Shown in pieces: positions 1 through 58,218 of a stretch of 64,000 bases of DNA. Each line of letters begins with the position of its first letter. The first letter of the stretch is position 1. The notes under the pieces were generated by a model. The model had not been told where the DNA came from. It was given only the letters and a program-made list of their open reading frames with translations, and made no database searches. This DNA is from an uncultured Verrucomicrobiae bacterium (GTDB taxonomy: Bacteria; Verrucomicrobiota; Verrucomicrobiia; Chthoniobacterales; UBA10450): the NCBI GenBank assembly GCA_963815455.1, contig CAWFGO010000005.1, positions 1-64,000 of the forward strand, in the 5' to 3' direction. Position numbers and translations under genes: made by a program.

Positions 1-584
1 TTATGCGCTGGAGGAAAGCATCGCCGAGTTCAGGGCAAAACCGTACCGGCAATTGGTGACGGTTGGTTGCCAAATCCTTACCGGAGTCAACGTGGAAGAA
101 GGCGAAGATCAGGCGTCTTATGCCGCGAAACGTCTGGTCTGGCTCGGTTTGGAGCAGGAATTTGTGCGGGCCGCTCCTTCACCGGTCAAATATCGCGATC
201 GAACCTATGCCTCGGCCGTGGCTCTGAAGCATTGGTTCGAAGACGAACAATCAATCGGTTAACGCGATCAATCTGGTCACGCTGGGGCCGCACGCCCGCC
301 GGAGCCGGTTGTTATTCGAAAAGGCTTTCCAGGGAAAAGTGCGCGTCGGGATCATCTCGATCGAGAACCGCGAGTACGACCCCGGTCGCTGGTGGCAATC
401 GAGCGAAGGAGTCAAGGAAACGATCAGCGAAGCTCTGGCCTACTGTTATGCGCGGTTGTTCTTCTATCCGACCGCGCAGCGTTGTAGTCAGTGCTCGTCA
501 GATTTCAGCAGAATCAGCGTCTCAGGTTATTCCGTCCGTAGTCATGTCAGCCGTCCGAGGTCATGGTTTTCATTGCACACATGA
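1..584 (+). CDS. YdcF/DUF218 (ElyC-like) family protein, 5'-truncated by window edge, apparent frameshift near 250
   Basis: Frame 1 ...[16 protein letters not shown] continues in another frame as [25 protein letters not shown]...[14 protein letters not shown], typical DUF218 motifs. Confidence 0.65.
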
Positions 585-1798
585 ACCGATTTGAAACTCT
601 CTCGGAACAGCTCCGGGCCTCACCCAAGATCTGGCTGGTCACCGGTGTGGCCGGTTTCATCGGGTCCAACTTGCTGGAGACATTGCTTCGGGCCGGGCAG
701 GAAGTGGTCGGGATCGACAATTTCGTTACCGGTAACCCGGCCAACCTGGCGGATGTAAGCCGACACGTGGACCCGGCGGCGTGGGAACGGTTCCGAATGA
801 TCGAGGGAGATATTTGCGACCCGGAAACCTGTCGCGATGCTTGTGCCGGCGTGGATTACGTTCTGCATCAGGCTGCGCTCGGATCGGTCCCGCGCTCGTT
901 AGCCGATCCGGTGGCGACAAATGAGAGCAATGTCAGCGGGTTCGTCAACATGCTTCACGCGGCAAACAAGGCCGGTGTGCGCCGGTTCGTTTTCGCCTCC
1001 AGCAGCTCGGTCTACGGCGATCATCCTGCTCTGCCCAAGGTTGAGGAACAGATTGGCAATTGCCTTTCGCCTTACGCCGTATCGAAACGGGTTAACGAAT
1101 TATACGCGGACGTTTTTTCCCGCTGTTACGGAATGGAGTGCATCGGGTTGCGTTACTTTAACGTGTTCGGTCCCCGGCAGGATCCAAACGGCGCTTATGC
1201 GGCGGTCATTCCCAAATGGATCGCCGCCATGATTGAAGGGGAGCCGGTGGAAATCAACGGCGACGGGGAGACCAGCCGCGATTTTTGCTACGTGGCCAAC
1301 GCGGTCCAGGCCAATCTCCTGGCGGCCACGGTCGAGAACAGTGAAGCCGTCAATAAGCTCTATAATATAGCGGTCGGCCAAAGGACGACGTTGAATCAGT
1401 TGTTCGAGCTGCTCCGGGAGCGATTATTGCCCGAGTTTCCCCAGCTCGCCGGCATCGAGCCGCACTATCGCGATTTCCGGCCCGGAGATGTGCGGCATTC
1501 TCATGCCGATATCAGCCGGGCCCGCGCGCTTCTGGGATACGAACCAACCCATCAGATCGAGGATGGCCTGGACGAAGCGCTGGAATGGTATGTGGCGAGG
1601 GCGAAGGGGGAGAAGGTGGGGGTTGGTAAAGCTCAAAAGCTGAAAACTGAAACGCTGACAGCTGAAATGAAAAAAAAGCGAAACAATGAGTCGATTGTCA
1701 GAGGATCTGCGGGAAAGGACCAAGCGATTCGCATCGGGGGTGATTCATCTCTACGTAGCGCTTCCGAAGCGGCGCAAAGAGGTCGACGTGTTGGGTAA
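581..1798 (+). CDS. wbpP: UDP-GlcNAc/GlcNAcA 4-epimerase (WbpP/TviC-like extended SDR); C-terminus runs into the repeat arm and next gene
   Basis: [17 protein letters not shown] site, SPYAVSK catalytic Yxxx[25 protein letters not shown]; similarity ends about EWY, then a long tail. Confidence 0.88.
1628..1667 (+). repeat. Left arm of four-helix-bundle cassette 1 (7-8-nt units, AAAGCTGA-like)
   Basis: aaagctca aaagctga aaactga aacgctga cagctga; reverse-complementary to 2061-2112. Confidence 0.85.
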
Positions 1799-2054
1799 TC
1801 AACTTCTCCGCTCTGGCACATCTGTCGCTGCGCATGCGCGTGAAGCGTCACGGGCACGCTCGGATGGTGAATTTTGTTCCAAGCTGGATGGGTTGCTCCA
1901 GGAAGCCGATGAGTCTCAGCTTTGGCTCGAGCTATTGCGGGACGATTGCGCGATTAGGGATCAGGCTCTTCCGAGTCTCCACGGTGAAGCAGACGAACTG
2001 CTCGCGATATTCAGCACGATGGTGGCAAAGGTGAGGCGCGATCCATCGGCCTAA
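1686..2054 (+). CDS. Four-helix-bundle protein (23S rRNA intervening-sequence protein / Avd-like) #1
   Basis: [10 protein letters not shown]...[46 protein letters not shown] family motif. Confidence 0.9.
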
Positions 2055-2060
2055 GCTTCG

Positions 2061-2112
2061 TTTCAGCATGTCAGCGTTTCAGCTTTTCAGTTGTCAGTTT
2101 TTCGGGTGTCAG
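2061..2112 (+). repeat. Right arm of four-helix-bundle cassette 1 (TTTCAGCN units)
   Basis: tttcagca tgtcagcg tttcagct tttcagt tgtcagt; pairs with the left arm. Confidence 0.85.
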
Positions 2113-2117
2113 TAGTC

Positions 2118-3596
2118 ATGTCTTCTCCTCTTATCGCCATCGTCGGCCTGGGTTACGTTGGTCTTCCGCTGTCGATCCAGTTCGCCCGGTCGTGCACGAC
2201 CGTGGTCGGGATCGATGTCGATCCTCAAAAGGTCGAGCAACTCAACAAGGGAAAGAGTTATATCAAACATATCGACTCGGCCGATATCGCCGAGCTGGTG
2301 GAAACAGGGAAGTTTTATGCCACCACCGATTTTAGCCGGATCCGGGAGGTCGAGGCGGTGATTATTTGCGTGCCGACGCCGCTGAACAAGAATCGCGAGC
2401 CGGACTTGTCGTATGTCCTCGACACAGGGCGGGCGATCGCGCCGCACCTGAAATCTGCGGAACATGACAACAACACTCAACGCTCAACGCTCAACGCTCA
2501 ACGCTTGAAGAAGCTGGTCGTTCTAGAATCTACGACTTACCCGGGAACGACGGAGGACGAACTCCGAGCGGTATTGGAGGAGAATTCGCCCTACATCGAC
2601 GATACGACAACAAACAACAGACAACGGCCAACAGAGGACGGAGGACGGAAGACGGAACTCAGCGATCAGACGTCAGAGGTCAGTAGTCAGTCGTCGGTGG
2701 TCTGTGGTCCGACCCGGCGCCGCATGCGCGCCGGCCTGGATTTCCATCTGGCGTTTTCGCCGGAGCGGGAGGACCCGGGTAACGAATTGAGCAAGGTGAA
2801 ACGTATCCCCAAGGTAGTTGGCGGTTATACTCCCGCCTGTCTGGAACGGGCCGTGGCCCTCTACAGCCGGGCCATCGACACCATCGTCCCGGTGTCGTCG
2901 TGCCGAGCCGCCGAGGCGACCAAGCTCTTGGAAAACATTTTCCGCAGCGTGAACATCGCGCTGGTTAACGAGCTGAAGATCATCTACGGGGCGATGGGGA
3001 TCGACGTCTGGGAGGTGATCGAGGCGGCCAAGACCAAGCCGTTTGGGTTTATGCCATTTTATCCCGGGCCGGGTCTGGGAGGTCATTGCATACCAATCGA
3101 TCCGTTCTATCTCACTTGGAAAGCGCGGGAACACGGGCAGCATACCCGATTCATCGAGCTGGCGGGGGAGATTAATACCGCCATGCCCGAGCACGTTGTC
3201 CATCGGGTTTCGGACGCTCTCAACAATCAACGAAAAACCATCAACGGTTCCCGCATCCTGATTCTGGGCCTGGCCTACAAGCCGAATGTCGATGATGAAC
3301 GGGAATCACCCAGCTATGTGCTCATGAGACTCCTTTGCGAACGCGGCGCGGAGGTGGATTATCACGATCCCTACGTCCCCGAGATTAAACCGACCCGGGA
3401 ACATTCCCAGTTTGCCGGGAAAAAATCGGTTGCCTGGAACCGATTGACCATCGAAAGCTTCGATCTGGTTCTGATCGCCACGAATCATTCGTCAGTGAAT
3501 TATCAGGAGCTCGGCGACTGGGCCCAGTGCATCGTCGATACCCGCAACGCAATGGCAGGGATCGACGCGGCGAAGGGGAAGGTTTGGAAGGGGTAG
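2118..3596 (+). CDS. Nucleotide-sugar dehydrogenase (UDP-GlcNAc/ManNAc 6-dehydrogenase, WbpA-like) with two in-frame repeat insertions
   Basis: IVGLGYVGLPL, ICVPTPL, LESTTYPGTT, SPEREDPGN, GPGLGGHCIPIDP, GLAYKPNVDDERESP; ATG at 2118. Confidence 0.92.
   Translation: MSSPLIAIVGLGYVGLPLSIQFARSCTTVVGIDVDPQKVEQLNKGKSYIKHIDSADIAELVETGKFYATTDFSRIREVEAVIICVPTPLNKNREPDLSYVLDTGRAIAPHLKSAEHDNNTQRSTLNAQRLKKLVVLESTTYPGTTEDELRAVLEENSPYIDDTTTNNRQRPTEDGGRKTELSDQTSEVSSQSSVVCGPTRRRMRAGLDFHLAFSPEREDPGNELSKVKRIPKVVGGYTPACLERAVALYSRAIDTIVPVSSCRAAEATKLLENIFRSVNIALVNELKIIYGAMGIDVWEVIEAAKTKPFGFMPFYPGPGLGGHCIPIDPFYLTWKAREHGQHTRFIELAGEINTAMPEHVVHRVSDALNNQRKTINGSRILILGLAYKPNVDDERESPSYVLMRLLCERGAEVDYHDPYVPEIKPTREHSQFAGKKSVAWNRLTIESFDLVLIATNHSSVNYQELGDWAQCIVDTRNAMAGIDAAKGKVWKG
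2471..2505 (+). repeat. Heptamer array (CAACGCT)n, in frame in the dehydrogenase
   Basis: caacact caacgct caacgct caacgct caacgct, read as NTQRSTLNAQRL. Confidence 0.85.
2600..2712 (+). repeat. Composite heptamer-repeat insertion, in frame in the dehydrogenase
   Basis: acaacaa acaacag acaacgg / aggacgg aggacgg aagacgg / agcgatc agacgtc agaggtc agtagtc / ggtggtc tgtggtc. Confidence 0.8.
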
Positions 3597-3609
3597 CGCA
3601 CGCTAGGCG

Positions 3610-3650
3610 CGGAAGACGGAAGACGGAAGACCGAGGACGGATGACGGGTA
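3610..3650 (+). repeat. Left arm of four-helix-bundle cassette 2 (CGGAAGA units)
   Basis: cggaaga cggaaga cggaaga ccgagga cggatga. Confidence 0.85.
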
Positions 3651-3684
3651 GCGTGACCGCAACAATGGACTGGGAAGGGTAAGC

Positions 3685-4083
3685 ATGGCCGAGAGAATAC
3701 TGAGTTTTAGAGATTTGCGGATTTACAAACTAGCCTTTGCCCTTCAGCAGGAAATCTTCGAAATTTCCAAACGATTTCCAGTGGAAGAGCGATATGCTCT
3801 TACGGATCAGATTCGGAGAGCATCACGATCAACCGGAGCTAATATATCGGAAGCTTGGCAGAAGCGGCGATATGTCGCCCACTTCGTGAGCAAGCTGACG
3901 GACGCGGACGGCGAGCAAGCAGAAAGTCAGCATTGGATAGGTTGTTCTCTGGCTTGCCGATACATCTCTGAATCAGAACATGAAGCCTTGCTGCAAAAGT
4001 GTTTCAGGATTGGTCAGATGCTCGGAGCAATGATGGCTGATCCCGATAAGTGGTGTCACAGAGAATACGAAGATCGTAAATAG
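3685..4083 (+). CDS. Four-helix-bundle protein #2
   Basis: FRDLRIYKLAF...FPVEERYALTDQIRRASRSTGANISEAWQKRRYVAHFVSKLTDADGE. Confidence 0.92.
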   Translation: MAERILSFRDLRIYKLAFALQQEIFEISKRFPVEERYALTDQIRRASRSTGANISEAWQKRRYVAHFVSKLTDADGEQAESQHWIGCSLACRYISESEHEALLQKCFRIGQMLGAMMADPDKWCHREYEDRK

Positions 4084-4122
4084 CCAACTAAGCAAACACA
4101 TGGGGAAACGTCAGCTCTCCAT

Positions 4123-4153
4123 TCGGTCGTCGGTCCTCAGTCGTCAGCCCTCA
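4123..4153 (+). repeat. Right arm of four-helix-bundle cassette 2 (TCGGTCS / TCAGTCG units)
   Basis: tcggtcg tcggtcc tcagtcg tcagccc; imperfect complement of 3610-3650. Confidence 0.75.
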
Positions 4154-4160
4154 ATCAATT

Positions 4161-5156
4161 ATGCCCCCTCCTCCTAACGAAAGCGCGGTCCCAGCCGGGG
4201 AACTGCCGACATCAACGTCTCCGTCCGCAACATTTTCCCTTCGCGGGCGTGTGGCCGGTTTTGCTGTCTGCGCCGCTTTGCTGATTGCGGCCTTTATAAA
4301 ACCGCTGATCGGCCTCGTTCTTCACGCTGCCCACAGTGAATTACATTCCCACATTCTGCTGGTACCGTTTGTAACGGCTTATCTCCTCTGGATTCGACGT
4401 GAAGAATTGCCGCGCACATTTAGCTCGTCGCCGGGCTGGGCTTTGCTGGCCGCACTCTTCGGCGGCGCCAGCTTGATGGCAGCGGTTTTGAGCCATGGCT
4501 TGAGTTACAATGATCATCTTGCCCTCCTGATGCTTGCCTTTCTCGGGTTCCTCGTTGCCCTCGGTTTTCTTTTTCTGGGACGCGCCTGGATGTGGTCGGC
4601 CGCTTTCCCGGTTTTCTTTCTCATTTTCATCGTCCCGATGCCTGATGGAATGGCCGATAATCTCGAGACAGCTTCAAAACTGGCTTCCACGGAAGCAGCC
4701 AACCTCTTCTTCATTATCAGCGGAACGCCAAACATTCGGGATGGCACTACGTTCCAGTTGCCTAACATCGCCATCCAGGTAGGCCAGCAATGCAGCGGAA
4801 TCCGCTCCAGTTGGGTCCTGGTCATCACCAGTTTGCTGGCCAGCAACCTGTTTCTCACCAGTAACTGGCGCCGGGCGGTCTTGGTTGCGTTCGTGTTTCC
4901 ACTGGGAATCATCCGGAACGGTTTTCGGGTATTTGTGATCGGGACCCTGTGTATTCATTTCGGCCCCCAAATGATCCACAGTATCATTCACCATAAGGGC
5001 GGTCCGCTTTTCTTCGCTCTGTCGTTGATTCCCCTGTTCCTGCTCCTTTGGTGGCTGAGGCGGGGAGACGACCGACAGGTCGCCAGCGATAAGAGGTCAG
5101 AGATCAGCGGTCAGAAGTCAGCGGTCAGCGGTCCGTATTCTTCACAAAGGCCTTAG
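4161..5156 (+). CDS. Exosortase (probably the VPDSG-CTERM-type, XrtC-like)
   Basis: Multi-TM protein with HSHILLVP, catalytic Cys in QQCSGIRS, RNGFR and HHKGG; VPDSG/VPEGG targets nearby. Confidence 0.88.
   Translation: MPPPPNESAVPAGELPTSTSPSATFSLRGRVAGFAVCAALLIAAFIKPLIGLVLHAAHSELHSHILLVPFVTAYLLWIRREELPRTFSSSPGWALLAALFGGASLMAAVLSHGLSYNDHLALLMLAFLGFLVALGFLFLGRAWMWSAAFPVFFLIFIVPMPDGMADNLETASKLASTEAANLFFIISGTPNIRDGTTFQLPNIAIQVGQQCSGIRSSWVLVITSLLASNLFLTSNWRRAVLVAFVFPLGIIRNGFRVFVIGTLCIHFGPQMIHSIIHHKGGPLFFALSLIPLFLLLWWLRRGDDRQVASDKRSEISGQKSAVSGPYSSQRP
5092..5133 (+). repeat. Left arm of four-helix-bundle cassette 3 (AGCGGTC / AGAGATC units)
   Basis: agaggtc agagatc agcggtc agaagtc agcggtc agcggtc; 5099-5115 is a perfect 17-bp inverted match to 5548-5564. 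Confidence 0.9.
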
Positions 5157-5508
5157 GTTCCCTGATCAACTTGCCGAGAATTGCCCCAATCTCATACTGT
5201 TGCTGGGACAATCTGCTGTGCTCGTCCTTTGACAAGTATTGGCAATCCAGAGCAAAATCGAGCCAGGCTTGGGTTTCGCTATTTTCGCCGTCTGCATCGG
5301 TGAGTTTGCTTACAAAGTGGGCTTCGTAACGCCGCTTCGACCATGCTTCGCGGATATTCGTGCACACCGATCGAGAAGAGCGCCTGATTTGATCAGTCAG
5401 CGAGTACTTCTCCTCTGTTGGAAAGTTTTTGCTTAATTCAAAAACGCGCATGGCTAATGCATACGCTTTTTGATACAGAATAAGATCCTTGGGCGACTTA
5501 ATTTGCAT
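5125..5508 (-). CDS. Four-helix-bundle protein #3, antisense to the operon
   Basis: MQIKSPKDLILYQKAY...FPTEEKYSLTDQIRRSSRSVCTNIREAWSKRRYEAHFVSKLTDADGE; ATG at 5508, 127 aa. Confidence 0.92.
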   Translation of the reverse strand: MQIKSPKDLILYQKAYALAMRVFELSKNFPTEEKYSLTDQIRRSSRSVCTNIREAWSKRRYEAHFVSKLTDADGENSETQAWLDFALDCQYLSKDEHSRLSQQQYEIGAILGKLIREPKAFVKNTDR

Positions 5509-5530
5509 TGGTAATACAGTATTGTGAAAA

Positions 5531-5565
5531 ATATCTGATATCTGATCTCTGACCGCTGATCTCTT
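5531..5565 (+). repeat. Right arm of four-helix-bundle cassette 3
   Basis: atatct gatatct gatctct gaccgct gatctct. Confidence 0.9.
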
Positions 5566-5590
5566 CATATCTATCCAGTTGAAAACCTCC

Positions 5591-6232
5591 ATGAAATTCC
5601 GCCAGGGTATCGCCCTCGCATTAGTTATTTCACTCGCCGCGCTACCTGGCTGCAAGAGCAGCGACGAAATGATGACAGGCGGTGAATCGACTACGGATTC
5701 GACTCCGGCGCCGGTAACGGCCGCCGGGCCAATTACCGCGTCAACTCCGGTAAAACTCTCGGCCGGCGATGTGATCAAGCTGACCTTTTCAGGTGCGAGC
5801 GAATTAAATCAGTCCCAGAAGATCAAGGCCGATGGCAAGGTAAACCTGCCGTTGATTGGAGAGGTGGAGGCTTCGGGGAAAACCCTGGTTGATTTCCAAA
5901 AGGAACTGATCGGTCTCTACAAATCGCAACTCCGAAACAGCGAGGTTTTGGTCACGTTGGAAAGCGGGATAGCGAATGTTATCCTTTCCGGTTACATCCA
6001 TAAACCAGGCAAGCTTTCCTTTGACCGACCGACGACGGTTTTCCAGGCAATCATGGAAGCAGGCGGCGCGACCGAGTATGGGAACCTGAGCAAGGTCCGG
6101 CTGGTCCGGACCGTTGATGGGCAACAAAAAACTCAGATTCTCAATCTGCGACCAGCCATCAAGAAGGAATCCGCCCCGGTCGATTACGTTAAGGACGGCG
6201 ACGTAATTTATATCCCGCAAAGACTATTCTAG
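5591..6232 (+). CDS. Polysaccharide export lipoprotein (Wza/Poly_export + SLBB)
   Basis: Lipobox LPGC, LSAGDVIKLTF, DGKVNLPLIGEVEASGKT, AIMEAGG, KDGDVIYIP. Confidence 0.88.
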   Translation: MKFRQGIALALVISLAALPGCKSSDEMMTGGESTTDSTPAPVTAAGPITASTPVKLSAGDVIKLTFSGASELNQSQKIKADGKVNLPLIGEVEASGKTLVDFQKELIGLYKSQLRNSEVLVTLESGIANVILSGYIHKPGKLSFDRPTTVFQAIMEAGGATEYGNLSKVRLVRTVDGQQKTQILNLRPAIKKESAPVDYVKDGDVIYIPQRLF

Positions 6233-6328
6233 TGCCCCGCAGGCGGGCCGGCCCGCCATGGATGGACTCGCCGCGGGAAGCGGCGCTCGAACAACTTGGC
6301 TTCGATCAGAGAAACGAAAGCCGAACGA

Positions 6329-7612
6329 ATGATGCAGATGCAGGCTAACACGCAGTCGCGATCGGGACCGATCACGGTGGGCCTGCTTTTCGCTTTGTTC
6401 CTTTTGCCAATATTTGTTCAACCAACCGGGGCTCGAGCCCAGGGACTTGCGCCGGAGGGAATCAGCCAGGAACAGAGCTCTACGGAGGAAGACGCTTCGG
6501 CTCCGACTCTGCAGCCTCCGCCCTTCCATATCACGGCCAACGTGCAAGGCGGATACGACGACAATTCCGGCGGATCGGCGGGCGGGGGGGGATCATCATT
6601 TGTTCATGGAGGATTGACCCTGTCCTATGAACTGCCGGGCGAACGGCCGCATCTTGGAATGAGCGCCGGCGCCAGTCTGGCGTATTATCCGGACAGCTCC
6701 GCTCGAAGCACGAGCGTAAACACCTACCTGAACCTGTCTCTCGGTTACCCTGTCTCCACCCGTCTGAGCCTCGGCGGAAGTATCAATGTCGCCTATCAAA
6801 CCGAGCCGGATTTCAGCTCGGATGTGGGCGTGGAAAATCGCCGGGCTAACTTCGTGCACATGAGCGGCTCGGTCTCGGCGACTTATAATTGGTACGAGCG
6901 GTTGTCCACCGTCACCAGCGGTTCCCTCCGCCTGGTGCGCTACGACAGCTCGTCCATCGGACTTTCCCAGGACCGAACCGAGGAATCCATTGGGCAGCAA
7001 TTTCGGTTTAATCTGGCAGACGAGGATAATGTCCTGGTGGCGGATTATCACTTCCAGATTGTGGATTACGACAGTTTCCCGCGCGATTCCACGACCCATA
7101 CTGTTCTGGGCGGTATCGATCATGGGTTCACCGAGCAACTGAAGGGCACGGCCCGGGCGGGGGCGACATTCCGTTCCTATAACGGTGGGAGCGATCGGAC
7201 CGATCCACATTTCGAGAGCTCGCTAAATTACTCCGGCGCTCACAACTCCTCGTTGAGCTGGACTGCTCGCTACGGCATTGAGGAACCGAATGCGACCAGC
7301 GCTCAATCTCGAACCACCTTTCGAACCGGCTTGGCGCTTGGCTACGGCGTGACCGCCCGGATTTCCGCCAGTCTGACCGGCTATTATCATCATGACGAAA
7401 ACCACGGATTCAGTTCGGGAGTCATTTTCCCCGCCCAACCCAGCCCGGGTTTTTCCGAAGACGCCATTGATGTCTCAGTCGGCGCGCATTACACGATCAA
7501 CACTCGATTCAGCTGCAGCGTCAATTATCACCGCTCCGAGATTATTTCCGGACGGGCCGGTCGCGAATATGGCCGAAATCGTTATTCGGCCGGCCTAACG
7601 TTCACCTATTAG
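6329..7612 (+). CDS. Outer-membrane beta-barrel protein of the EPS/PEP-CTERM locus (start uncertain)
   Basis: Signal peptide, GYDDN, alternating amphipathic strands, C-terminal GLTFTY. Confidence 0.78.
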   Translation: MMQMQANTQSRSGPITVGLLFALFLLPIFVQPTGARAQGLAPEGISQEQSSTEEDASAPTLQPPPFHITANVQGGYDDNSGGSAGGGGSSFVHGGLTLSYELPGERPHLGMSAGASLAYYPDSSARSTSVNTYLNLSLGYPVSTRLSLGGSINVAYQTEPDFSSDVGVENRRANFVHMSGSVSATYNWYERLSTVTSGSLRLVRYDSSSIGLSQDRTEESIGQQFRFNLADEDNVLVADYHFQIVDYDSFPRDSTTHTVLGGIDHGFTEQLKGTARAGATFRSYNGGSDRTDPHFESSLNYSGAHNSSLSWTARYGIEEPNATSAQSRTTFRTGLALGYGVTARISASLTGYYHHDENHGFSSGVIFPAQPSPGFSEDAIDVSVGAHYTINTRFSCSVNYHRSEIISGRAGREYGRNRYSAGLTFTY

Positions 7613-7627
7613 CAAAGAAAGGCCAGA

Positions 7628-7697
7628 GGCTGAAAAGCTGACAAACTGACACGCTGATCCGAATGTCAGCTTTTCAGCTGTCAGTTTGTCAGTTGTC
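7628..7697 (+). repeat. Gene-less inverted-repeat pair of the cassette-1 family
   Basis: gctgaaaa gctgacaa actgacac gctga - short spacer - tgtcagct tttcagc tgtcagt ttgtcagt. Confidence 0.85.
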
Positions 7698-7762
7698 CCG
7701 TGGTCCCGTGGTCTGTGGTCTGTGGTCTGTGGTCTGTGGTCCGTGGTCTGTAGTCCCGTAAT
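7697..7762 (+). repeat. (CTGTGGT)n array, complement of the cassette-4 GACCACA family
   Basis: cccgtggt cccgtggt ctgtggt x4 ccgtggt ctgtagt. Confidence 0.9.
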
Positions 7763-7767
7763 CCCCA

Positions 7768-8910
7768 CTATTTCTTCATGGAAATGTTAGCGATCTTTGG
7801 CGAAGAAGTGGCATAGCCGCTGCCCGCAGTGAGAGTCATGGTAGCTGTCTTGGTCTGGTTCGGACCTTTGATGACTGTCAGCGTAACCGTGGCCGAGCTG
7901 GCTCCGGCCGGGATGGTAACCTGTCGCGTTGGCCCGCTCAGAGTATAATGTGTTCCCAATTTGGCGGTGCCGCTCATGCTGTAGTTGATCGTCAGCGGGC
8001 TGCTTGGACTTACCGACGCAGTGATTGTGTAGTTCGCGCTTTGACCTGTTTTCACCTTGGCTGAGGGTGCAGTGACGCTGACGGCCGGCGTGGAAGTCGG
8101 AGTTGGAGTGGGCGTTGGGGTGGCGGTTGGTGACGGGCTGGGCGTTGGTGTAGGCGTTGGGCTCGGCGAAGGTGAAGGCGTTGGCGTCGGAGTCGGTGAC
8201 GGAGCGGACGCACTAATCGTGACCGTGGCGCTCTTGGCCGACGACAGGGTGTAGCCGCTCCCCGTCGAGAGAGTCATGGTGGCGGTCTTGGGATTATTGG
8301 GGGTTTTGATGGCAGTGAGAGTGACCGTGGCGGAGCTGGCTCCGGCCGGGATGGTAACCTGTCGGGTTGGCCCGCTCAGAGTATAGTGCGTTCCCAAAAT
8401 GGCCGTACCGCTCATGGTATAACCAATCGTGACCGCGGCATTCGGGTTTATTACCGACGCGGTGACGGTGTAGGTGGAGGTTTGCGTTGCTTGCACCGTG
8501 GTTGGGGAGGCCGCGATTGAGATAATGGGCGTAGGAACTGGGGTCGCTGACGGTGTTGGGGAAGGCGTGGCGGTCGGGCTTGGAGTGGGAGTGGGCGAGC
8601 CACCCGGGGCGGTATAGGAAACCTCGTTCGAAGGCGGGCTTTCGACGATATCCGTGTTGTATGCGGTTACGGCAAAGAAATAGGTGTGGCCCGGAACAAG
8701 GTTTGAAACGAGCGTTGTGGTGTTCGATCCAACCTCGATCGTTTGGGTATAAACGCCGCTATTCACGCCTGAATAGAGGCGGTAGCCGGCAATATCTGGC
8801 TCGGGGTTAGGGTCCCAGGCTAGAGTGACCTCTGCGGCGTGCGTCGCCCGGGCTGCCAAGGAGATAGCCAAAGCCATGGCGAGCGAAAAACGGGTAAGGC
8901 GATGCTTCAT
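7768..8910 (-). CDS. Secreted fibronectin type III protein with Pro/Thr linkers and two duplicated Calx-beta-like domains
   Basis: MKHRLTRF signal peptide; [19 protein letters not shown]...[10 protein letters not shown]; duplicated [36 protein letters not shown]. Confidence 0.82.
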
Positions 8911-8939
8911 GTTATAAATATGACTACTATGACAATTAT

Positions 8940-8955
8940 AGCAGGCTTCGTGCCC
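8940..8955 (-). promoter_or_regulatory. Putative sigma54 (-24/-12) promoter for the FN3 gene
   Basis: Minus strand GGGCACGAAGCCTGCT = GG-N10-GC about 30 nt before the ATG. Confidence 0.5.
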
Positions 8956-9062
8956 AATTGCCGAAATCGGGATACCCGTTCTTGCAGGGCCGCCAGATGG
9001 GTTGAACAGGGTAAAAAAGGTCCCGCAATCATCGCTCAGGGCGAAACAAAGGAGATCCACCG

Positions 9063-11213
9063 GTGACATTGGATTCATCGATCGCTTTTCTGGCTGCACT
9101 TTTCAGTGCCGCTTTGGCCGCCGCCGTTCTGTCCCGCAAGCGGCGATCAGTGGCCGCCTGGTGCTTCTCTGCCGGGATGCTCGTTTTTGCTCTGGAAAGC
9201 CTGTTGGCCGGGATGAGTCTCGGAGCGGTTTTGCCCGACGATATTGCGTTCTGGCAAACTCTCGGCTTCCTGGCCAAATCGTTCCTTCCCGGAATTTGGC
9301 TCTGTTTTAGTCTGACCTATTCGAGGGCAAACCGTCGCGACTTTGTTGTCCGATCATGGTTCCTTCTCGTAGCGGCCTTTCTGATTCCTCTTTGTTTACT
9401 GCCTGCATTGTACGGGCCGTTTCTTTACGTTCACGCGATCACTCCGTCCGCTCAGGGATGGTCGATCCAGTTTGGCGAAACTGCGAAAATCCTCAACGGC
9501 CTCATCCTTGTTTCAACCATCCTAATTTTGACCAATCTTGAGCGAACCTTTCGCTCAGCCGTCGGAACGATGCGGTGGCGGATCAAGTTTCTCGTGCTGG
9601 GGCTCGGAGTCATTTTTGGCACTCGGATATATACCCGGAGCCAGTCTTTGCTTTTTTCTGGGTACAATCTGGGCCAGTTAGACCTCGAAACCGCCGCGCT
9701 AGTCATTGGATGCGGGTTGATAGCGATTGGCTATTTCCGAAGCGGTTTTGGCGAAGTCGATGTCTACCCGTCGAGCGCGGTTCTGCATACGTCGGTGACT
9801 GTGCTATTGGCTGGGGCTTATCTTTTCGTGGTGGGCGTGTTGGCCAAGGTTGTGGCTCGCTTCGGCGGTGCCGGCAGTTTCCAGATCGCCGCTTTCCTGG
9901 TCCTTTTGGGAGCCGCTCTTCTGGCTGTGCTATTGCTTTCCGATCGGTTGCGCCAGAACATTCAACTCTTTGTTAGTCGCCATTTCAAGCGCCCGCAGCA
10001 CGATTTCCGGCTGGTATGGACGCGATTTACCCGCAGGATCGCGCCCATTGTCGATGAGCCTGGTCTTTGTTTGGTGACGTCGCGATTCATTGCCGAGACC
10101 TTTAATGCCCTTTCCGTTTCCGTTTGGTTATTTGACGAACATCGACAGCGGCTTGTCCAAAAAAGCTCGACCGCCGATTCCGATCGCGAATCCGGCGGCC
10201 TTGGCTCAAACGAATTGGGGGAGTCGCAGGAGCTGGACCCCGAGGCATTGAGCGAGTTGCTGGGTCCGTTCGATCTCGACAAGGCAGGGCAGGGGTGCCC
10301 GAAAAATTTAAAGGAGATCGGTGGAGGACAATTTCGGACCGGGGGGAACCGCATCTGCGTGCCGTTGCTGACAGGCGAGTGCCCTCTCGGGGTAATCATT
10401 CTGGCCGATCGGGTGGGGGGGATTCGTTACACTGGTGAAGAGATGGATCTGCTCAAATGCATCGGCGACCAGGTGGCCGCCAGCCTGTTGAATCTGCGTC
10501 TTTCCCGCGAGCTGATGGAAAAAAAGGAACTGGAGGCCTTCCAAACGATCTCCGCTTTTTTTGTCCACGATCTCAAGAACGCGGCCTCGACCCTGGGCCT
10601 GACCTTGCAAAATCTGCCCAAGCACTTCGATGACCCTGAGTTCCGTCAGGACACTCTCCGTGGAATCGGAAGTGCCGCCGACCGGATCAACCAGATCGTC
10701 AGCCGGTTGAACGCTTTCCGCCACGAGTTGCATCTGACCAGCGGCGACGTCGATCTTAACCGGTTGGTCACTGGGGCGGTCGATAGCCTGAACGGCACAA
10801 TGGGCGCCGAAGTCGTTACCCAAATGCAACCTGTTTCGATGATTGCCGGTGATGACGACAAACTACAAAGCGTGGTTACGAATCTGCTTCTAAACGCCCG
10901 CGACGCGGCCGGCGACCGGGGCCGGATCACCGTGGCAACGAGCCAGCACAAGAACTGCGTTGTCCTTTCCGTTTCCGATAACGGTTGCGGGATGTCCCCC
11001 GATTTCATTCGAGATTCGCTTTTCCGGCCCTTCCGGACGACAAAAAAGAAAGGCCTCGGTATCGGGATGTTTCAGGCCAAAATGATTGTTGATGCGCATC
11101 GTGGTAGTATTCAAGTCGAGAGCGAAGTTGGCGTGGGAACGACATTCCGGGTTACTTTGCCGATAATGACGACCACAAGACCACAGACCACAGACTACAA
11201 GACAGCGGGATAA
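9063..11213 (+). CDS. prsK: PEP-CTERM system histidine kinase PrsK
   Basis: N-terminal TMs, GAF, AFFVHDLKN H-box, NLLLNA, DNGCGMS, FRPFRTTKKKGLGIGM. Confidence 0.9.
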   Translation: MTLDSSIAFLAALFSAALAAAVLSRKRRSVAAWCFSAGMLVFALESLLAGMSLGAVLPDDIAFWQTLGFLAKSFLPGIWLCFSLTYSRANRRDFVVRSWFLLVAAFLIPLCLLPALYGPFLYVHAITPSAQGWSIQFGETAKILNGLILVSTILILTNLERTFRSAVGTMRWRIKFLVLGLGVIFGTRIYTRSQSLLFSGYNLGQLDLETAALVIGCGLIAIGYFRSGFGEVDVYPSSAVLHTSVTVLLAGAYLFVVGVLAKVVARFGGAGSFQIAAFLVLLGAALLAVLLLSDRLRQNIQLFVSRHFKRPQHDFRLVWTRFTRRIAPIVDEPGLCLVTSRFIAETFNALSVSVWLFDEHRQRLVQKSSTADSDRESGGLGSNELGESQELDPEALSELLGPFDLDKAGQGCPKNLKEIGGGQFRTGGNRICVPLLTGECPLGVIILADRVGGIRYTGEEMDLLKCIGDQVAASLLNLRLSRELMEKKELEAFQTISAFFVHDLKNAASTLGLTLQNLPKHFDDPEFRQDTLRGIGSAADRINQIVSRLNAFRHELHLTSGDVDLNRLVTGAVDSLNGTMGAEVVTQMQPVSMIAGDDDKLQSVVTNLLLNARDAAGDRGRITVATSQHKNCVVLSVSDNGCGMSPDFIRDSLFRPFRTTKKKGLGIGMFQAKMIVDAHRGSIQVESEVGVGTTFRVTLPIMTTTRPQTTDYKTAG

Positions 11214-11290
11214 AACAAGACCACAGGACCACGGGGCAACCGGACCACGGGGGGACCGCAGACAACAAGACTACTGACCACAGGACGACT
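11171..11290 (+). repeat. Left arm of four-helix-bundle cassette 4 (GACCACA/GACCACGG units), overlapping the prsK 3' end
   Basis: gaccacaa gaccaca gaccaca gactacaa ... gaccacag gaccacgg ... gacaacaa gactact gaccacag. Confidence 0.88.
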
Positions 11291-11296
11291 AAGAAC

Positions 11297-11737
11297 GTGA
11301 GGGACTATAGTAAAATAAAGGCGTGGCAACTCGCTGATGATCTGACCGTTGCGATATACGAACGCACACGATCGTTCCCCCGAGAAGAAGTGTACGGCCT
11401 AACCAGCCAATTGCGCCGCGCCTCTTATTCCGTCCCGGCGAATATCGTGGAAGGAGCGTCACGCGAGAGCAAGAGGGATTATTTGCATTTCCTTTATATC
11501 GCCCGCGGATCGCTGTCCGAAACGCAGTATTTCATCCATCTGGCGCGAAGACTGAGATATCTGTCTGACAAAGACGCTGAAACTCTTCACGAACAGACAA
11601 AAGTGGCATTTGGCTGTTTGCATGGACTCATCCGCGCGGTTGAAAAAGAAGCTGGCAAAGTAATTGCCATGATTACCAGTTTATTAGCAATCGGTTTCGT
11701 TTGCCGGTCAAGTAATCACTTGCCCGTAGTCTCGTAG
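11297..11737 (+). CDS. Four-helix-bundle protein #4
   Basis: YSKIKAWQLA...FPREEVYGLTSQLRRASYSVPANIVEG...YLHFLYIARGSLSETQY. Confidence 0.93.
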   Translation: MRDYSKIKAWQLADDLTVAIYERTRSFPREEVYGLTSQLRRASYSVPANIVEGASRESKRDYLHFLYIARGSLSETQYFIHLARRLRYLSDKDAETLHEQTKVAFGCLHGLIRAVEKEAGKVIAMITSLLAIGFVCRSSNHLPVVS

Positions 11738-11791
11738 CCACAACGATGACAAGAAAAACAGTCCGTGGTCTGTTGTCAGTGGTTAGTGGCC
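11724..11791 (+). repeat. Right arm of four-helix-bundle cassette 4
   Basis: ccgtagtc tcgtagcc ... cgtggtc tgttgtc agtggtt agtggcc. Confidence 0.75.
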
Positions 11792-11805
11792 AGGCGTGAC
11801 GTTAT

Positions 11806-13218
11806 ATGAAGCCCAGATTGCTCGTGGTCGATGACGATGCGGAGATCCGCACCCAAATGAAGTGGGCGCTCGGCTCCGACTACGATGTTGTTTCGGCCGA
11901 AGATCGCACCGGAGCGGTGAAGGCTTTCAAGGCCGAGCAACCTGCAGTCACCCTGCTCGATTTGGGCCTGCCGCCTCGCCCAAATGACTGCGAAGAGGGT
12001 CTGGCCGCCCTAACGGATCTGCTGGCGATCGGCCCGCAGGCGAAAATTATCGTCATTTCGGGCCAGGGAGAAAAGAAAAATGCCATCCAGGCCGTTGGCG
12101 CAGGAGCTTACGATTTCCTCTGCAAACCGGTGGACGTAGAAGAGCTAAAGCTGATCCTTCGGCGGTGTATCTACGTGGTTAATCTCGAAAACGAGTACAG
12201 GGAAATACAACGCAAAACGCAGCCCGGCGCATTTGAAGACATGCTCGGAACGAGTCCGCAAATGCAGGGCGTTTTCGGGTTTATTCGCAAAGTGGCTGGG
12301 ACGACCGCGCCGGTGCTGTTGCTCGGTGAAAGCGGCACCGGGAAGGAAATGGCTGCCCTGGCCATTCATCGCCGCAGTCCCGGGGAGAAGGCCCATTTAT
12401 TGCCATCAATTGCAACGCCATCCCGGAAAACCTGCTCGAGAGCGAGCTATTCGGCCACGAAAAGGGCTCCTTTACCGGCGCTCATGCTCAACGCAAGGGG
12501 CTGATCGAAAGTGCCGGCGGCGGCACTTTGTTCCTGGACGAGATCGGCGAACTTCCACCCTCGATTCAAGTCAAGCTGCTCCGCTTTCTGCAGGAACAAC
12601 GCTTTCAGCGGGTCGGCGGCCGGCAGGAAATCCAAATCGATACCCGGGTGATCGCCGCCACCAACGCCGATCTCAAAGAGTCGGTGTCGAACGGAAAATT
12701 CCGGGAGGACTTGTACTTCCGGCTGGCCGTGGTCGTCCTCAAGCTGCCTCCGCTGCGCGATCGCGGAGACGATGTCGATCTTCTGGCCCAAAATTTCCTG
12801 CAGCAGTTTGCGGTGCAATGCGAGAAGAAGCGTTTGACACTTGCGCCCGATGCGCTCCGGGCCATTCGACGCCATGCCTGGCCGGGGAACGTCCGCGAGC
12901 TTCAAAACCGAATTAAGCGGGCGGTCATCATGGCCGATGGAAAGACGAATTTCCGCGGACGACCTGGAATTAACAGGAGGCAATGAGCTGGTGGTACCGG
13001 CTACCTTGAAAGAGGTGCGCGAAAACGTCGAGCGCGAGCTGGTGGAGCAAACGCTCAAACGTCACGCCGGCAAGATCACATCGGCGGCGGCCGATCTTGG
13101 AATCAGCCGGCCAACCTTGTACGAATTGATGGAAAAACTCGGCATTGCGCGCACCGACAAAGCGCAATCCTTGGGCTCCTCCGATGCAGAAGCTGCGACT
13201 GAACCGCAGGAAGCATGA
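11806..13218 (+). CDS. prsR: PEP-CTERM-box sigma54 response regulator PrsR (two apparent frameshifts, about 12380 and 12945)
   Basis: Receiver [46 protein letters not shown] and Fis-type [12 protein letters not shown], across three ORFs. Confidence 0.9.
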
Positions 13219-13273
13219 GGAAATGGCGGGCCTTGATTCCTGAATTCGAGTAAGATCGAGAGGGTTGAAAAAT

Positions 13274-16200
13274 ATGCGAAAACTAATTGTTAACTTCCTG
13301 GTCGGAACAGCTTTGGTAGAAATGATCCTTCCGCTTTCAGGTTGCTCGAAATCGGTCCGGACATCCCGATTCATCGAGCAGGCAGATCAGTACTATAAGT
13401 CGGGGAACTACGACAAGGCCAAGATCCAATACCTAAACGCTCTACGCCTCGATCATCAGAATGTTCGGGCATTCGAACAACTCGGCTTGATTTGGAGCGA
13501 GCAGGGGGTCCCCCTTCGGGCCATCCCGTTTCTTTTGAAAGTTCGAGAACTTGCCCCGAAACATACTCCGGCCAGAGACAAACTCGCCCTGGCCTTGATG
13601 GCACTGGGCGACCGGACGGAAGCCAGAAAGGAAGCAAAGGCAATCCTCGAGCAAGACCCGAAGAACTCCGATGCCATCATCTTGATCGCCGATACCGCCC
13701 AGGGCAAGGAAGACTTTGCCGCCACCGAGGAATACCTGAAGAAATTTCCAGACAAGCAAACAGCGGCCTACCATCTGGCCGGGGCCAGCCTGGCCGTTAA
13801 GAAGGGAGAGATCGGAGCCGCTTCGGATGAAGTCCAGCAGGCAATCGCCGCTGAGCCGAAATCAGCCCGGGCCCATCTTGTCCTGGGTTTCCTCTACCTT
13901 CTTCGCAAAGACAAGGCTCGGGCCGGAGAGGAATTGAAAACCGCGGCCGATTTGGCGCCGCTCCGGTCGGACGAACGAATCAAGTACGCCGAGTTTCAGG
14001 CTGCCGATGGAAATCGTGAGGAGGCCAAACGAGTTCTCGGGGAGATAACGAAAGCGGCCCCCGATTATCTGCCGGCGTGGCGGGATCTGGCCCAAATTGC
14101 CCTAACGGAAAAGAAATACGACGAAGCTCTGACGTTTCTGGAGAACATGATTGGCCGGGATCCCGACAATCCCGAGGCCCGGCTTCTGCAATCCAGCGTT
14201 TTTCTGGCCAACGGCGAGGGGCACAAAGCGGTTGCCAGCCTGGATAGATTGAACGCGAACTATCCAAAGAATCCGCTGATCAAGCTTCAGATCGCGAAAG
14301 CGTATGTGCAGACCAGAAATCTGTCCCAGGCGAGCCTCGCGCTCGAACAAGCATTGAAGGCCCGGCCCGATTTCGCCGAAGCCATTCTGGCCCTGGCCGA
14401 ACTGAACCTGCGAACCGGCAAAGCCCAGGCCGTGGTTGCGCCGATGGAGGACCTGCTCAAAAAACATCCGGAGATGTCGCAGGCGCGCGTCTTGTTAGCC
14501 GATGCTTACCGGGGGTTGGGGAAATTGGACAAGGCGGCCGAGCTTTTTCGCGAACAAATCAAGGCGAAGCCAGATTCGGGGGATTCGTATCTTCTTCTTG
14601 GGTTGATTCTTCGCCAGCAAAAGAAGGAGGAAGAAGCCCGGCAGGCATTTGAAAAAGCAGGGGAATTGGCTCCAGACAACCTCCTCCCGATCGATCAGCT
14701 GATCGACATGGATTTGCGGCAGAAGCAGTTCGACAATGCCGAACAGCGTGTTCAACAACTGTTTCAAAAAATCCCGGATTTTCCTCCGGCCCACGTGTTG
14801 CAAGGCAAGATTTTCGCCGCCCAAGGGAAGTGGGACGCGGCCGAGGCGGAATTCAAAAAAACAATCGAGCTGAAACCGGACTACGCCCCAGCCTACGACT
14901 TGTTGATTCAGGTCTATCTGATCTCCAAGAGAGTGCCGCAGGCCATCGACGAGTTGCAAAAGCTCGCGTCAAAACAGCCAAAAGACCCGCGCCCCCTGAT
15001 GTTGCTGGGACATCTATACGATCGAACGAATGATTTTCCCAAGGCGCGAGAAACATATGAAAGAGTGCTGGCCCTGAACCCGGACTCCGTCTTCGCCTTA
15101 AACAACCTCGCCTACATTTACGCCGGGCCATTAAACGACCTGGCCAAAGGCCATGAACTGGCAACCAAAGCGCGCTCGTTGCAACCGAATGAACCCTCCG
15201 TTGCCGATACTCTGGGCTGGATTCTATATAAGAAAGGAGAGTTTCAGCAGGCTCTGGCCTTGCTTCAGGAAAGCGTGAGCAAGCAGCCCGACAACGGGGA
15301 AATGCAGTTTCATCTTGGCATGACTTATTACATGATGGGGCAATCCGACGCGGCCCGCGCGGCTTTGGAGCGGGCGGTCCAGGTGACTGGCGACTATCCC
15401 GGAAAGGATGAGGCGCAACGCCGGCTCGCCGCATTACAACAGTCGGGAACCCAGCGCACCACGACCGAACTGGAGGCCGACCTGAAGCAGCAGCCAGACG
15501 ACCCGCTGGGACTCATGCGTCTTGGGGAAGACTACGAAAAGCAAGACAAGGCGGCAGAGGCAGCGGTGGCATTTGAAAAGGCTTATCAGCTCAACCCCAA
15601 GCTCCCCGGCCTCGCCTTGAAACTCGCCCAACTGTATGCCGGACCGCTGCATAAAAGTGACAAAGCTCTTGAGATGGCTAAGAAAGCGCGCGACCTGGCG
15701 CCAAACGATGCCACGGTGGCAGGTACCCTGGGGGCCGTGGTCCTGAAGGCGGGTAACTATCAGTGGGCTTATACTCTTCTGAAGGAAAGCGCCCGGCTGA
15801 GCGCGAACGACCCTGGCGTGCTACGCGACTTGGCCTGGGCGGCATATTATTGTGGCAAAGTTTCGGAGGCGCGCCAGATGATGCGAAAACTCCAGACTGC
15901 GGCTGATTCTGGTTCCTCAGACCAAAAAGAGGCGGAGCAATTTCTTGGCTTAACGAGTATCGAGGAAGGTCCCACCCGCCTGCTGGCGGTGGAAGATCAG
16001 ATCGATCCTGTGCTTCAAGCGCGCCCAGATTATCTTCCGGCGCTGATGGCGCACGCCGCCCTGCAAATCAAACAGGGGAACATTGACGCCGCGATCAAGA
16101 GCTACAACGAAATCCTGGGTCGCTATCCGGACTTTGCCCCGGCCCAGCGAGACCTTGCCACACTATATGCTGCGAGTCCTGGTTCGCTGGACAAGGCCAA

Positions 16201-19500: not shown

Positions 19501-19772
19501 AGACTCTTAAAGATGATCCGGAACTGGATCGGACCCTCGCTCGGATCAGCTTCAAGCGAAAAGAATTTCCGTATGCCGTACAATTGTTCGAGCAAACTGC
19601 TGCCAGGAAGCCTCTCGCAGCCCAGGACCTTTATTATCTGGGAATGGCCCAGTTCCAGAGCAAGCAGGAGGGTAAGGGACGGCAGTCGCTCGATTTAGCT
19701 TTGAAAGCGGGTCTTTCCGGGCCCCTTGCTGAAGAGGCGAAAAAACGCCTCGCCAATCAGCCATCAAAATAG
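16553..19772 (+). CDS. PrsT-like TPR lipoprotein #2 (apparent +1 frameshift about 18435)
   Basis: ORFs 16553-18472 and 18297-19772 together align end to end with TPR #1. Confidence 0.83.
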
Positions 19773-54552: not shown

Positions 54553-55008
54553 ATGATGAAAACGAAAATCTTTGCTATTATTGCATTATCTTTTGGTTTG
54601 GCTGGCTTCTGCCTGGCGCAAACCACTGCCAAGAGCGCCGGCACGCCCTACACCGAAGGCACAGTCTGGACTCTTACGATGATCAAAACCAAAGCCGGAC
54701 TTGGCGATGATTATTTTCGGCAAATCAGCCAGAGCGTGAAGCCGGTGTACGAGGAAGAGAAGAAGCAAAAGATCATTCTCGATTACAAAATCCTCGAAGG
54801 CGACGCCATGGGACCGGAGGACTTTAACATCATTATTATGGTGGAATATCCGAACATGGCCGCGCTCGATGGCTTGCGTGACAAGATGGACCCGATTGTG
54901 GAGAAAGTGATGGGTTCTCAGGATCAACAACGCGCCACCGCAGTGAAGCGGCTCGATATCCGCGAAATTCTCGGCACGAAGACCATGCGCGAGATCACGT
55001 TGAAGTAA
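54553..55008 (+). CDS. Secreted hypothetical protein
   Basis: Signal peptide; YTEGTVW...ILDYKIL...VEYPNMAALD. Confidence 0.65.
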   Translation: MMKTKIFAIIALSFGLAGFCLAQTTAKSAGTPYTEGTVWTLTMIKTKAGLGDDYFRQISQSVKPVYEEEKKQKIILDYKILEGDAMGPEDFNIIIMVEYPNMAALDGLRDKMDPIVEKVMGSQDQQRATAVKRLDIREILGTKTMREITLK

Positions 55009-55085
55009 TCAGACGTCAGAGATCAGAAGTCAGACATCAGGAATCTGCGTTAATCCGCAGTAATCTGCGGTTGAACTGATTACCT

Positions 55086-58180: not shown

Positions 58181-58218
58181 AAACGTCCAACGCTCAACGC
58201 TCAACGTCCAACGCTCAA
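58181..58218 (+). repeat. Heptamer array (CAACGCT/CAACGTC)n
   Basis: Same unit as the in-frame array at 2471-2505. Confidence 0.8.

Follow-up and report, generated by a model that had tools for sequence, protein, structure and literature searches.

We analysed a 64,000-nt stretch of DNA, hereafter the window, from an uncultured Verrucomicrobiae bacterium (GenBank assembly GCA_963815455.1, contig CAWFGO010000005.1, positions 1 to 64,000). Within about 10 kb the window carries four open reading frames (ORFs) for four-helix-bundle (FHB) proteins, here called FHB1 to FHB4; as predicted earlier from the sequence, all four exceed the cut-offs of TIGR02436 and PF05635 in profile searches (4/4). FHB1 shares 25-31% identity with each of the other three proteins, and FHB2 shares 55% with FHB3. 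Their operon neighbours are genes for an epimerase, a UDP-sugar dehydrogenase, an XrtC-like exosortase, a Wza-like exporter, PrsK and PrsR. On either side of all four genes Tandem Repeats Finder (TRF) detects arrays with a period of 7 or 8 nt, which form inverted arms; a gene with its two arms is called a cassette below. FHB cassettes are real and widespread, are similar in build to the intervening sequences (IVS) of 23S rRNA and carry a candidate recognition code. The four cassettes consist of the following parts, FHB3 being antiparallel to the operon.

1628..1671, + strand: FHB1 5′ arm, about five copies of a GCTGAAA-type unit of 7-8 nt, at the end of the epimerase gene
1686..2054, + strand: FHB1 gene, 122 aa, matching TIGR02436/PF05635
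2057..2113, + strand: FHB1 3′ arm, inverted, ending 4 nt before the ATG (2118) of the UDP-sugar dehydrogenase gene
3605..3647, + strand: FHB2 5′ arm, GGACGGA-type unit, 8 nt past the dehydrogenase stop (3596)
3685..4083, + strand: FHB2 gene, 132 aa
4109..4153, + strand: FHB2 3′ arm, inverted and degenerate, ending 7 nt before the exosortase ATG (4161)
5084..5134, − strand: FHB3 3′ arm, overlapping the end of FHB3 and the end of the exosortase ORF
5125..5508, − strand: FHB3 gene, 127 aa, carrying S77, which covaries with base 3 of the unit
5531..5564, − strand: FHB3 5′ arm, GATCAGA/GGTCAGA-type unit; the Wza-like gene begins at 5591
11168..11290, + strand: FHB4 5′ arm, GAC(C/T/A)AC units, beginning in the tail of PrsK right after an ATGA
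11297..11737, + strand: FHB4 gene, 146 aa
11717..11792, + strand: FHB4 3′ arm, inverted and split, ending about 13 nt before the PrsR ATG (11806)

The arms of a locus were compared by a pair score, in which the upstream DNA is matched to the reverse complement of the downstream DNA. FHB1 to FHB4 score 51, 25, 36 and 28, against a median of 16 and a 95th percentile of 22 for control genes. Cognate arm pairs beat non-cognate pairs in the score matrix, its off-diagonal highs being loci with a common unit. The original prediction, that each FHB gene lies inside inverted arms of its own, is thus borne out. It had also described the upstream arrays as purine-rich; this is true of the window (upstream purine fraction 0.57-0.79) but not of the genome in general, where units such as ATTTTCG, AACGTTC and the hexamer TCGTGC occur. 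The 43 window proteins scanned against Pfam, 13 at first and then 30 of 42 additional gene calls, include no transposase, recombinase or reverse transcriptase (RT), in agreement with the first reading. An Rfam scan of positions 1-13500 gave no match, and promoter and terminator scans stayed at chance level (4 vs 4.9 and 11 vs 11.7). PrsR (11806-13218) and a second TPR gene (16553-19772) are each split into two frames, probably by long-read indels. Since the assembly probably contains such errors, the exact frames at the ends of the epimerase, exosortase and PrsK genes are uncertain.

Inverted arms are enriched around the whole FHB family, another point on which the first reading was right. In this genome 18 of the 20 PF05635 genes reach a pair score of 24 and 14 reach 30; among 811 controls, small genes from a crude gene caller, the counts are 28 and 9. 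The two misses are longer proteins that end outside the fixed scoring interval, and their true ends score 30 and 20. Two longer FHB genes with a C-terminal extension (G000:C2:636009 and G000:C1:1594876) have arms of ∼9-nt units at their true ends.

From relatives, a GTDB scan, metagenomes and IMG/VR we collected 306 distinct FHB loci of many phyla, not counting those that lay at a contig edge or whose profile match was short. Verrucomicrobiota and the clades of FHB3 and FHB4 are over-represented in this set and among the 31 loci added later. A score of 24 is reached by 262 loci and a score of 30 by 212; 27 of 31 later loci also reach 24. The unit is 7 nt long in 161 of the 212 loci, 8 nt in 40 and 6 nt in 11, and an arm has a median of four copies by chaining or five to six by motif count. 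The 5′ arm starts at the upstream stop codon in 172/212 loci (median −1 nt), while the 3′ arm ends just before the next ATG in 134/212 (median 7.5 nt), where it occupies the ribosome-binding region. Two planctomycete loci (L420 and L421) have a 3′-type array upstream of the FHB gene and no pairing. FHB3 relatives occur on 40 plasmid records, mostly cyanobacterial (Nostocales); Nostocales are known for heptamer repeats. Two scans of IMG/VR yielded nine FHB loci, and the phage collection gave no FHB3 match.

Repeat units and protein clades

It is the protein clade, not the site, that determines the unit, in line with the original prediction. Each clade has its typical units, which recur in different families and phyla. 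In the FHB4 clade GACnAC is present on both sides in 65 of 68 loci, versus 4 of 233 other loci. Amino-acid identity in this clade is 0.80, and the third positions of conserved codons are near saturation (identity 0.37, n=67). The FHB genes are intact and under strong purifying selection.

A finer correspondence was observed in the NxREAW subclade of FHB3, to which the code test was confined (45 loci whose 7-mer arms are confident; the wider clade has 113 loci). When residue 77 is Asn, base 3 of the unit is not T (10/10); when it is any other residue, base 3 is T (34/35), a rule obeyed by 44 of 45 loci. Pooled over copies, the share of T is 0.80 for Ser, 0.77 for Ala, 0.61 for Gly and 0.10 for Asn. 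When all columns and bases were scanned, this was the top pair that is not an artefact; the first row by mutual information, at unit position 4, was rejected as the product of a near-invariant column. The idea of one base anchor shared by every clade was checked by eye and abandoned. On the best tree, built without the two tested columns, the position-77 trait changes seven times, and a single clade of the Asn rows, a group named after the data had been seen, is rejected (approximately unbiased test, p-AU 0.0015). A prediction noted beforehand agrees with 14 of 15 new loci.

This residue-to-base covariation suggests that the FHB protein recognises its own flanks. That the protein binds its own repeat was one of the possibilities raised in the first reading, and at the level of sequence it gains support. 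We regard recognition of the repeats by their own protein, its DNA and RNA versions taken together, as very probable. An account without recognition would hold that arms and gene are merely co-inherited, paired arrays being slow to change as several copies in two arms must change together. Most of the agreement between unit and clade is indeed expected from common descent, and the tree is poorly resolved, with only 5 of 42 branches starred. However, Asn goes with non-T on about seven branches whose monophyly is rejected, no selection on pairing is visible that would slow the arms, and the unit outlasts the saturation of third positions. Co-inheritance alone seems to us improbable.

FHB3 was modelled as a four-helix bundle (predicted local distance difference test, pLDDT, 93.8) with template modelling (TM) scores of 0.74-0.84 to 2GSC/2RLD and of 0.72-0.75 to Avd (4DWL/8UBx), a protein of diversity-generating retroelements (DGRs). 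A four-copy model scored 0.56, compared with 0.01 for the best of three controls, and thereby passed a mark that 20 of 30 solved pairs and 1 of 23 single chains attain; the runs have at least 88% of contacts in common and a pLDDT of at least 86. This pass may reflect the predictor's memory of pentamers already solved. In the model S77 lies at the predicted crevice between protomers, where it is in contact with R53, W56 and P6 of the adjacent copy, and E54 meets E78. Residues Q40, R43, S47 and E78 are conserved at 96-99% in 247 rows. We propose that the FHB protein would form the five-membered ring of its family and hold one heptamer per protomer in the crevice, where S77, beside R53/W56 and near the near-invariant E54/E78, would take part in the read-out much as Avd takes flipped-out bases.

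Gene-less arrays and orthologous junctions

Arrays of the same units occur in the window away from FHB genes. The first reading had overlooked those at 2471-2505, 2607-2720 and 7629-7756.

2471..2505, + strand: CAACGCT array within a 17-aa in-frame insertion of the dehydrogenase, absent from 6/6 orthologues
2607..2720, + strand: mixed heptamer array/hairpin with FHB4-, FHB2- and FHB3-type units within a 44-aa in-frame insertion of the dehydrogenase, absent from 6/6 orthologues
7629..7697, + strand: hairpin of FHB1-type units past the stop of a beta-barrel gene
7698..7756, − strand: solo array of about seven FHB4-type units past the stop of a convergent FN3 gene

Two more solo heptamer arrays lie at gene junctions of the window (55008-55040 and 58188-58218).

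The genome contains 291 arrays of period 7 or 8, and period 7 dominates (137 sequence windows, versus 41, 17 and 14 for periods 6, 8 and 9). Away from FHB genes there are 199 7-mer arrays, of which 66 have the unit of a resident arm and 91 differ from one by a single base (157 in total); for shuffled units the expected shares are 1.7% and 24.9% (∼27% together). Solo arrays keep the polarity of the arms: the 5′ type is found 37 times after stops and 17 times before starts, the 3′ type 24 times before starts, 10 times after stops and 21 times at positions called inside genes. No partner array accompanies 124 of the 157. The loops of 23 gene-less hairpins (9-101 nt) contain no significant FHB remnant. 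A solo FHB1-type array follows the orthologous dehydrogenase stop in the relative G018 (L162), where no FHB gene is present.

These arrays bear on the possibility that FHB is a domesticated host regulator which acts in trans on the ∼200 solo arrays, the arms being its autoregulatory sites. Solo arrays and resident FHB arms do have units in common, the protein is under strong purifying selection, and five searched genomes without an FHB match have zero matches to the two array patterns (the reversed-pattern control for this search was uninformative, the pattern being nearly its own reverse). However, GTGAC-type arrays are kept in G007, G011 and G017 (5, 23 and 19 matches), where all nine FHB matches examined belong to other clades. 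A regulon is also at odds with the arrays in frame inside genes and with the patchy presence of FHB genes at orthologous sites described below, and we think it an unlikely explanation. Of the genomes used, G008 and G015 are unpublished; they contribute only to the counts on array patterns, FHB-free genomes and clade units, and no conclusion rests on them.

Stop/start junctions gain and lose cassettes. No FHB gene is present in six loci with an 80%-identical dehydrogenase (0/6), one of which (L165) keeps the full gene order, nor at 28 other PrsK-PrsR junctions (0/28), where PrsK and PrsR overlap by ATGA in 17. Among 14 genomes compared at the sdhA-sdhB junction (two further loci have no such junction), five have an FHB cassette, two a 4-nt overlap, six other palindromes and one, G004, a gene-less hairpin, whose unit differs from those of the filled sites and matches the arm of G004's own FHB gene. 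Upstream of FHB4 relatives (70-82% identical), the 39 readable genes belong to 14 protein families; downstream, 20 genes belong to 15. The ATGA at both ends of FHB4 and the (A/G)TGA..ATGA at sdhA-sdhB are attributable to selection that keeps stop and start. These comparisons bear out the view of arms plus gene as an acquired unit; the FHB genes, for which a search for empty sites had been proposed, are not fixed in relatives.

The sdhA-sdhB junction is a hot spot (L423-L432), occupied according to genus by an FHB cassette, a tandem FHB pair (G012), a gene-less heptamer hairpin or REP-like palindromes, REP standing for repetitive extragenic palindromic. Elsewhere in the genome an FHB fragment (G000:C3:783989) is interrupted by a cluster of REP-like palindromes.

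Recognition on DNA or on RNA

The first reading had supposed that the arms fold into a long RNA stem. Selection for such a stem is not supported: across 212 loci the arms contain 337 G-U pairs against 398 A-C mismatches (77 against 88 by loci), whereas tRNA acceptor stems, used as control, have a ratio of 10:1. Arms pair with their own partner little better than with the partner of a clade-mate (38.2 vs 33.7, p 0.10; 36.3 vs 28.4, p 7e-5). The absence of a G-U excess and the near-equal cross-pairing indicate that each arm mainly fits a consensus set by the protein, a pattern that suits two binding sites facing inward better than a stem kept for its own sake.

We therefore prefer, tentatively and at somewhat less than an even chance, a self-recognising cassette whose FHB ring reads both arms, either on DNA or on duplex irrespective of strand. 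Both arms would themselves be the binding sites, and rings would hold the two cassette ends together. Host or trans-acting recombination machinery might then move or copy the held ends into new junctions, and loss of the gene might leave hairpins and solo arrays behind. A cassette that inserts at stop/start junctions and leaves arrays without a gene behind is the best reading of the data, though we hold it with similar reserve. The IVS of 23S rRNA could be such a cassette that landed in rRNA and is removed there by RNase III.

The same recognition could take place on RNA, a version that we consider quite possible but somewhat less probable. The ring would bind the transcribed repeats, as one arm or as a stem with flipped-out bases; the stem would bring the upstream stop near the downstream start, or RNase III would cut it, and the protein would tune translation of its own and the next gene, as an mRNA form of the 23S rRNA IVS. 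It is consistent with the position of the arms at stops and in ribosome-binding regions, with the ATGA overlap at empty PrsK-PrsR sites and with the long stems of FHB1 and FHB3 (folding z −2.2 and −2.6; mean pair probability of the arms 0.85 and 0.92), and the genome has an RNase III gene. On the other hand, FHB2 and FHB4 fold poorly (0.71 and 0.32), FHB3 is antiparallel to the operon, most solo arrays are partnerless, G-U pairs are not in excess, and arms fit the clade consensus almost as well as they fit their partner. The G-U argument is blunted if the protein reads a duplex and ignores flipped positions.

Several observations weigh against the DNA-level, mobile cassette that we prefer. The arms follow transcription, with the 5′ arm at a stop and the 3′ arm before an ATG, so that action at the RNA level explains their placement more directly. 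The accessible part of a preprint on the DGR complex reports that all five protomers of Avd, the closest studied homologue, contact one RNA stem-loop, with flipped-out bases entering inter-protomer crevices (bioRxiv 2023.10.23.563531); by analogy FHB might bind RNA. The IVS of Coxiella, in helix 45 of 23S rRNA, has two to three GACAGAT heptamers before its ORF and is cut by RNase III according to the accessible text of PMC4990558, which regards the heptamers as variation among strains rather than as sites for a protein; this analogy, too, points toward RNA. Movement appears to be rare, since one sdhA-sdhB cassette is kept across five genera. No consistent target-site duplication is seen (12/210 vs a null of 1.2%, the top match being an array artefact), and the mean shared word at cassette ends, 3.37 vs 3.09, gives no rule either. 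FHB contains no transposase motif, and the 90% complete genome has no match to PF00078 (RT). Its 16 Y1_Tnp matches, all outside the window, were considered as arm carriers and rejected, as none is flanked by such arms on both sides (0/16). The covariation has weak points as well: residue 77 was chosen after the data had been seen, starred branches give only one independent pair, the 15 new loci include only one Asn locus, and of 17 low-confidence loci one is callable, two Asn rows having mixed A/T arrays. The non-autonomous mobile cassette of the original prediction is accordingly retained in part: the same element is present at many sites and is present or absent at orthologous ones, but neither a target-site duplication rule nor a mover was found. 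An autonomous partner with the same ends was not found in this genome either.

One Y1-transposase-like ORF (G000:C3:533951) lies between inverted repeats.

Comparison with known systems

In build the cassettes resemble ORF-bearing IVS, and in genomic ecology the REP sequences with their REP-associated tyrosine transposases (RAYTs), although they fail the defining tests of IVS, Avd, RAYT and MITEs (miniature transposable elements with inverted repeats). With the ORF-bearing 23S rRNA IVS of Coxiella and Leptospira they share the S23p family, a length of ∼450-500 nt and terminal inverted repeats that enclose the ORF, and the GACAGAT type of the Coxiella IVS is also found here in the FHB2/FHB3 clade. 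Unlike these IVS, FHB cassettes have protein genes as neighbours and are not inside a 23S rRNA helix; they are found in operons of protein genes, number 20 per genome and each have a unit of their own, and their arms lack the signature of RNA-stem selection. Avd shares the fold of FHB3; however, the FHB proteins stay below the NF033474 cut-off (best 48.5 of 80 bits), only FHB3 exceeds that of PF22296 (49.7, cut-off 40), and the genome gave no PF00078 match that could be the RT of a DGR.

A RAYT gene lies between inverted repeats, and gene-less doublets and singlets of the repeat are scattered across the genome, much as FHB cassettes and gene-less arrays share junction hot spots. The differences are that FHB (PF05635) has no HUH/tyrosine transposase domain, that its repeats are tandem heptamers, and that the Y1 genes of this genome lack the arms. 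MITEs and non-autonomous insertion sequences are similarly present or absent at orthologous sites and recur at many sites, but FHB cassettes have no fixed target-site duplication.

Dispersed heptamers offer the closest parallel to the solo arrays. In the accessible parts of two papers, GGGAATC/GGGGAYT (PMC4692102) and TAACTGA (PMC4679880) occur with one strand after stops and the other just before starts, a stop/start rule without Shine-Dalgarno that includes inverted pairs, as in the FHB arrays. The main texts of PMC4692102 and PMC4679880 do not contain the terms 'four helix', 'intervening' or 'S23'. Unlike in those cases, many units coexist here, each matched to a resident protein clade. The literature searched, which did not cover subscription journals, yielded no paper that links the PF05635 family to heptamer arms beyond the Coxiella IVS. 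The short tandemly repeated repetitive (STRR) sequences of cyanobacteria are also dispersed heptamer repeats. Small ORFs enclosed by tandem inverted repeats may already have been reported from Bacteroidota, though our literature search did not confirm this.

PF05635 is very widespread and, to our knowledge, without an assigned function. Heptamer repeats are a familiar oddity of many bacterial genomes, and we know of no protein that binds them. The cognate pairing of protein and repeat, with its one-residue switch, makes both the function of PF05635 and the binder of the repeats testable by one binding assay, and a small programmable repeat-binding ring could result. In a wider reading, which we consider rather doubtful, the cassettes would be a cross-phylum class of transposase-free selfish elements, whose ring-forming protein would use a residue-to-base code to read tandem heptamers and would help to seed them. 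PF05635 would then be the missing partner of bacterial heptamer repeats, rRNA IVS and the Avd of DGRs would be offshoots, and GxxExxY nuclease genes with arms of 9-10-nt units would be a sister branch.

Both GxxExxY (PF13366) loci of this genome (G000:C1:134455-134757 and G000:C2:225115-225455) lie between inverted arms of 9-10-nt units, with scores of 51 and 53. Past the first of them (G000:C1:134200-134900) the last ∼50 nt of a nuoK-like gene, read by eye, are repeated with synonymous changes as a mini-ORF that abuts the next ATG. For annotation, the arms of FHB cassettes are a source of false gene extensions and in-frame insertions.

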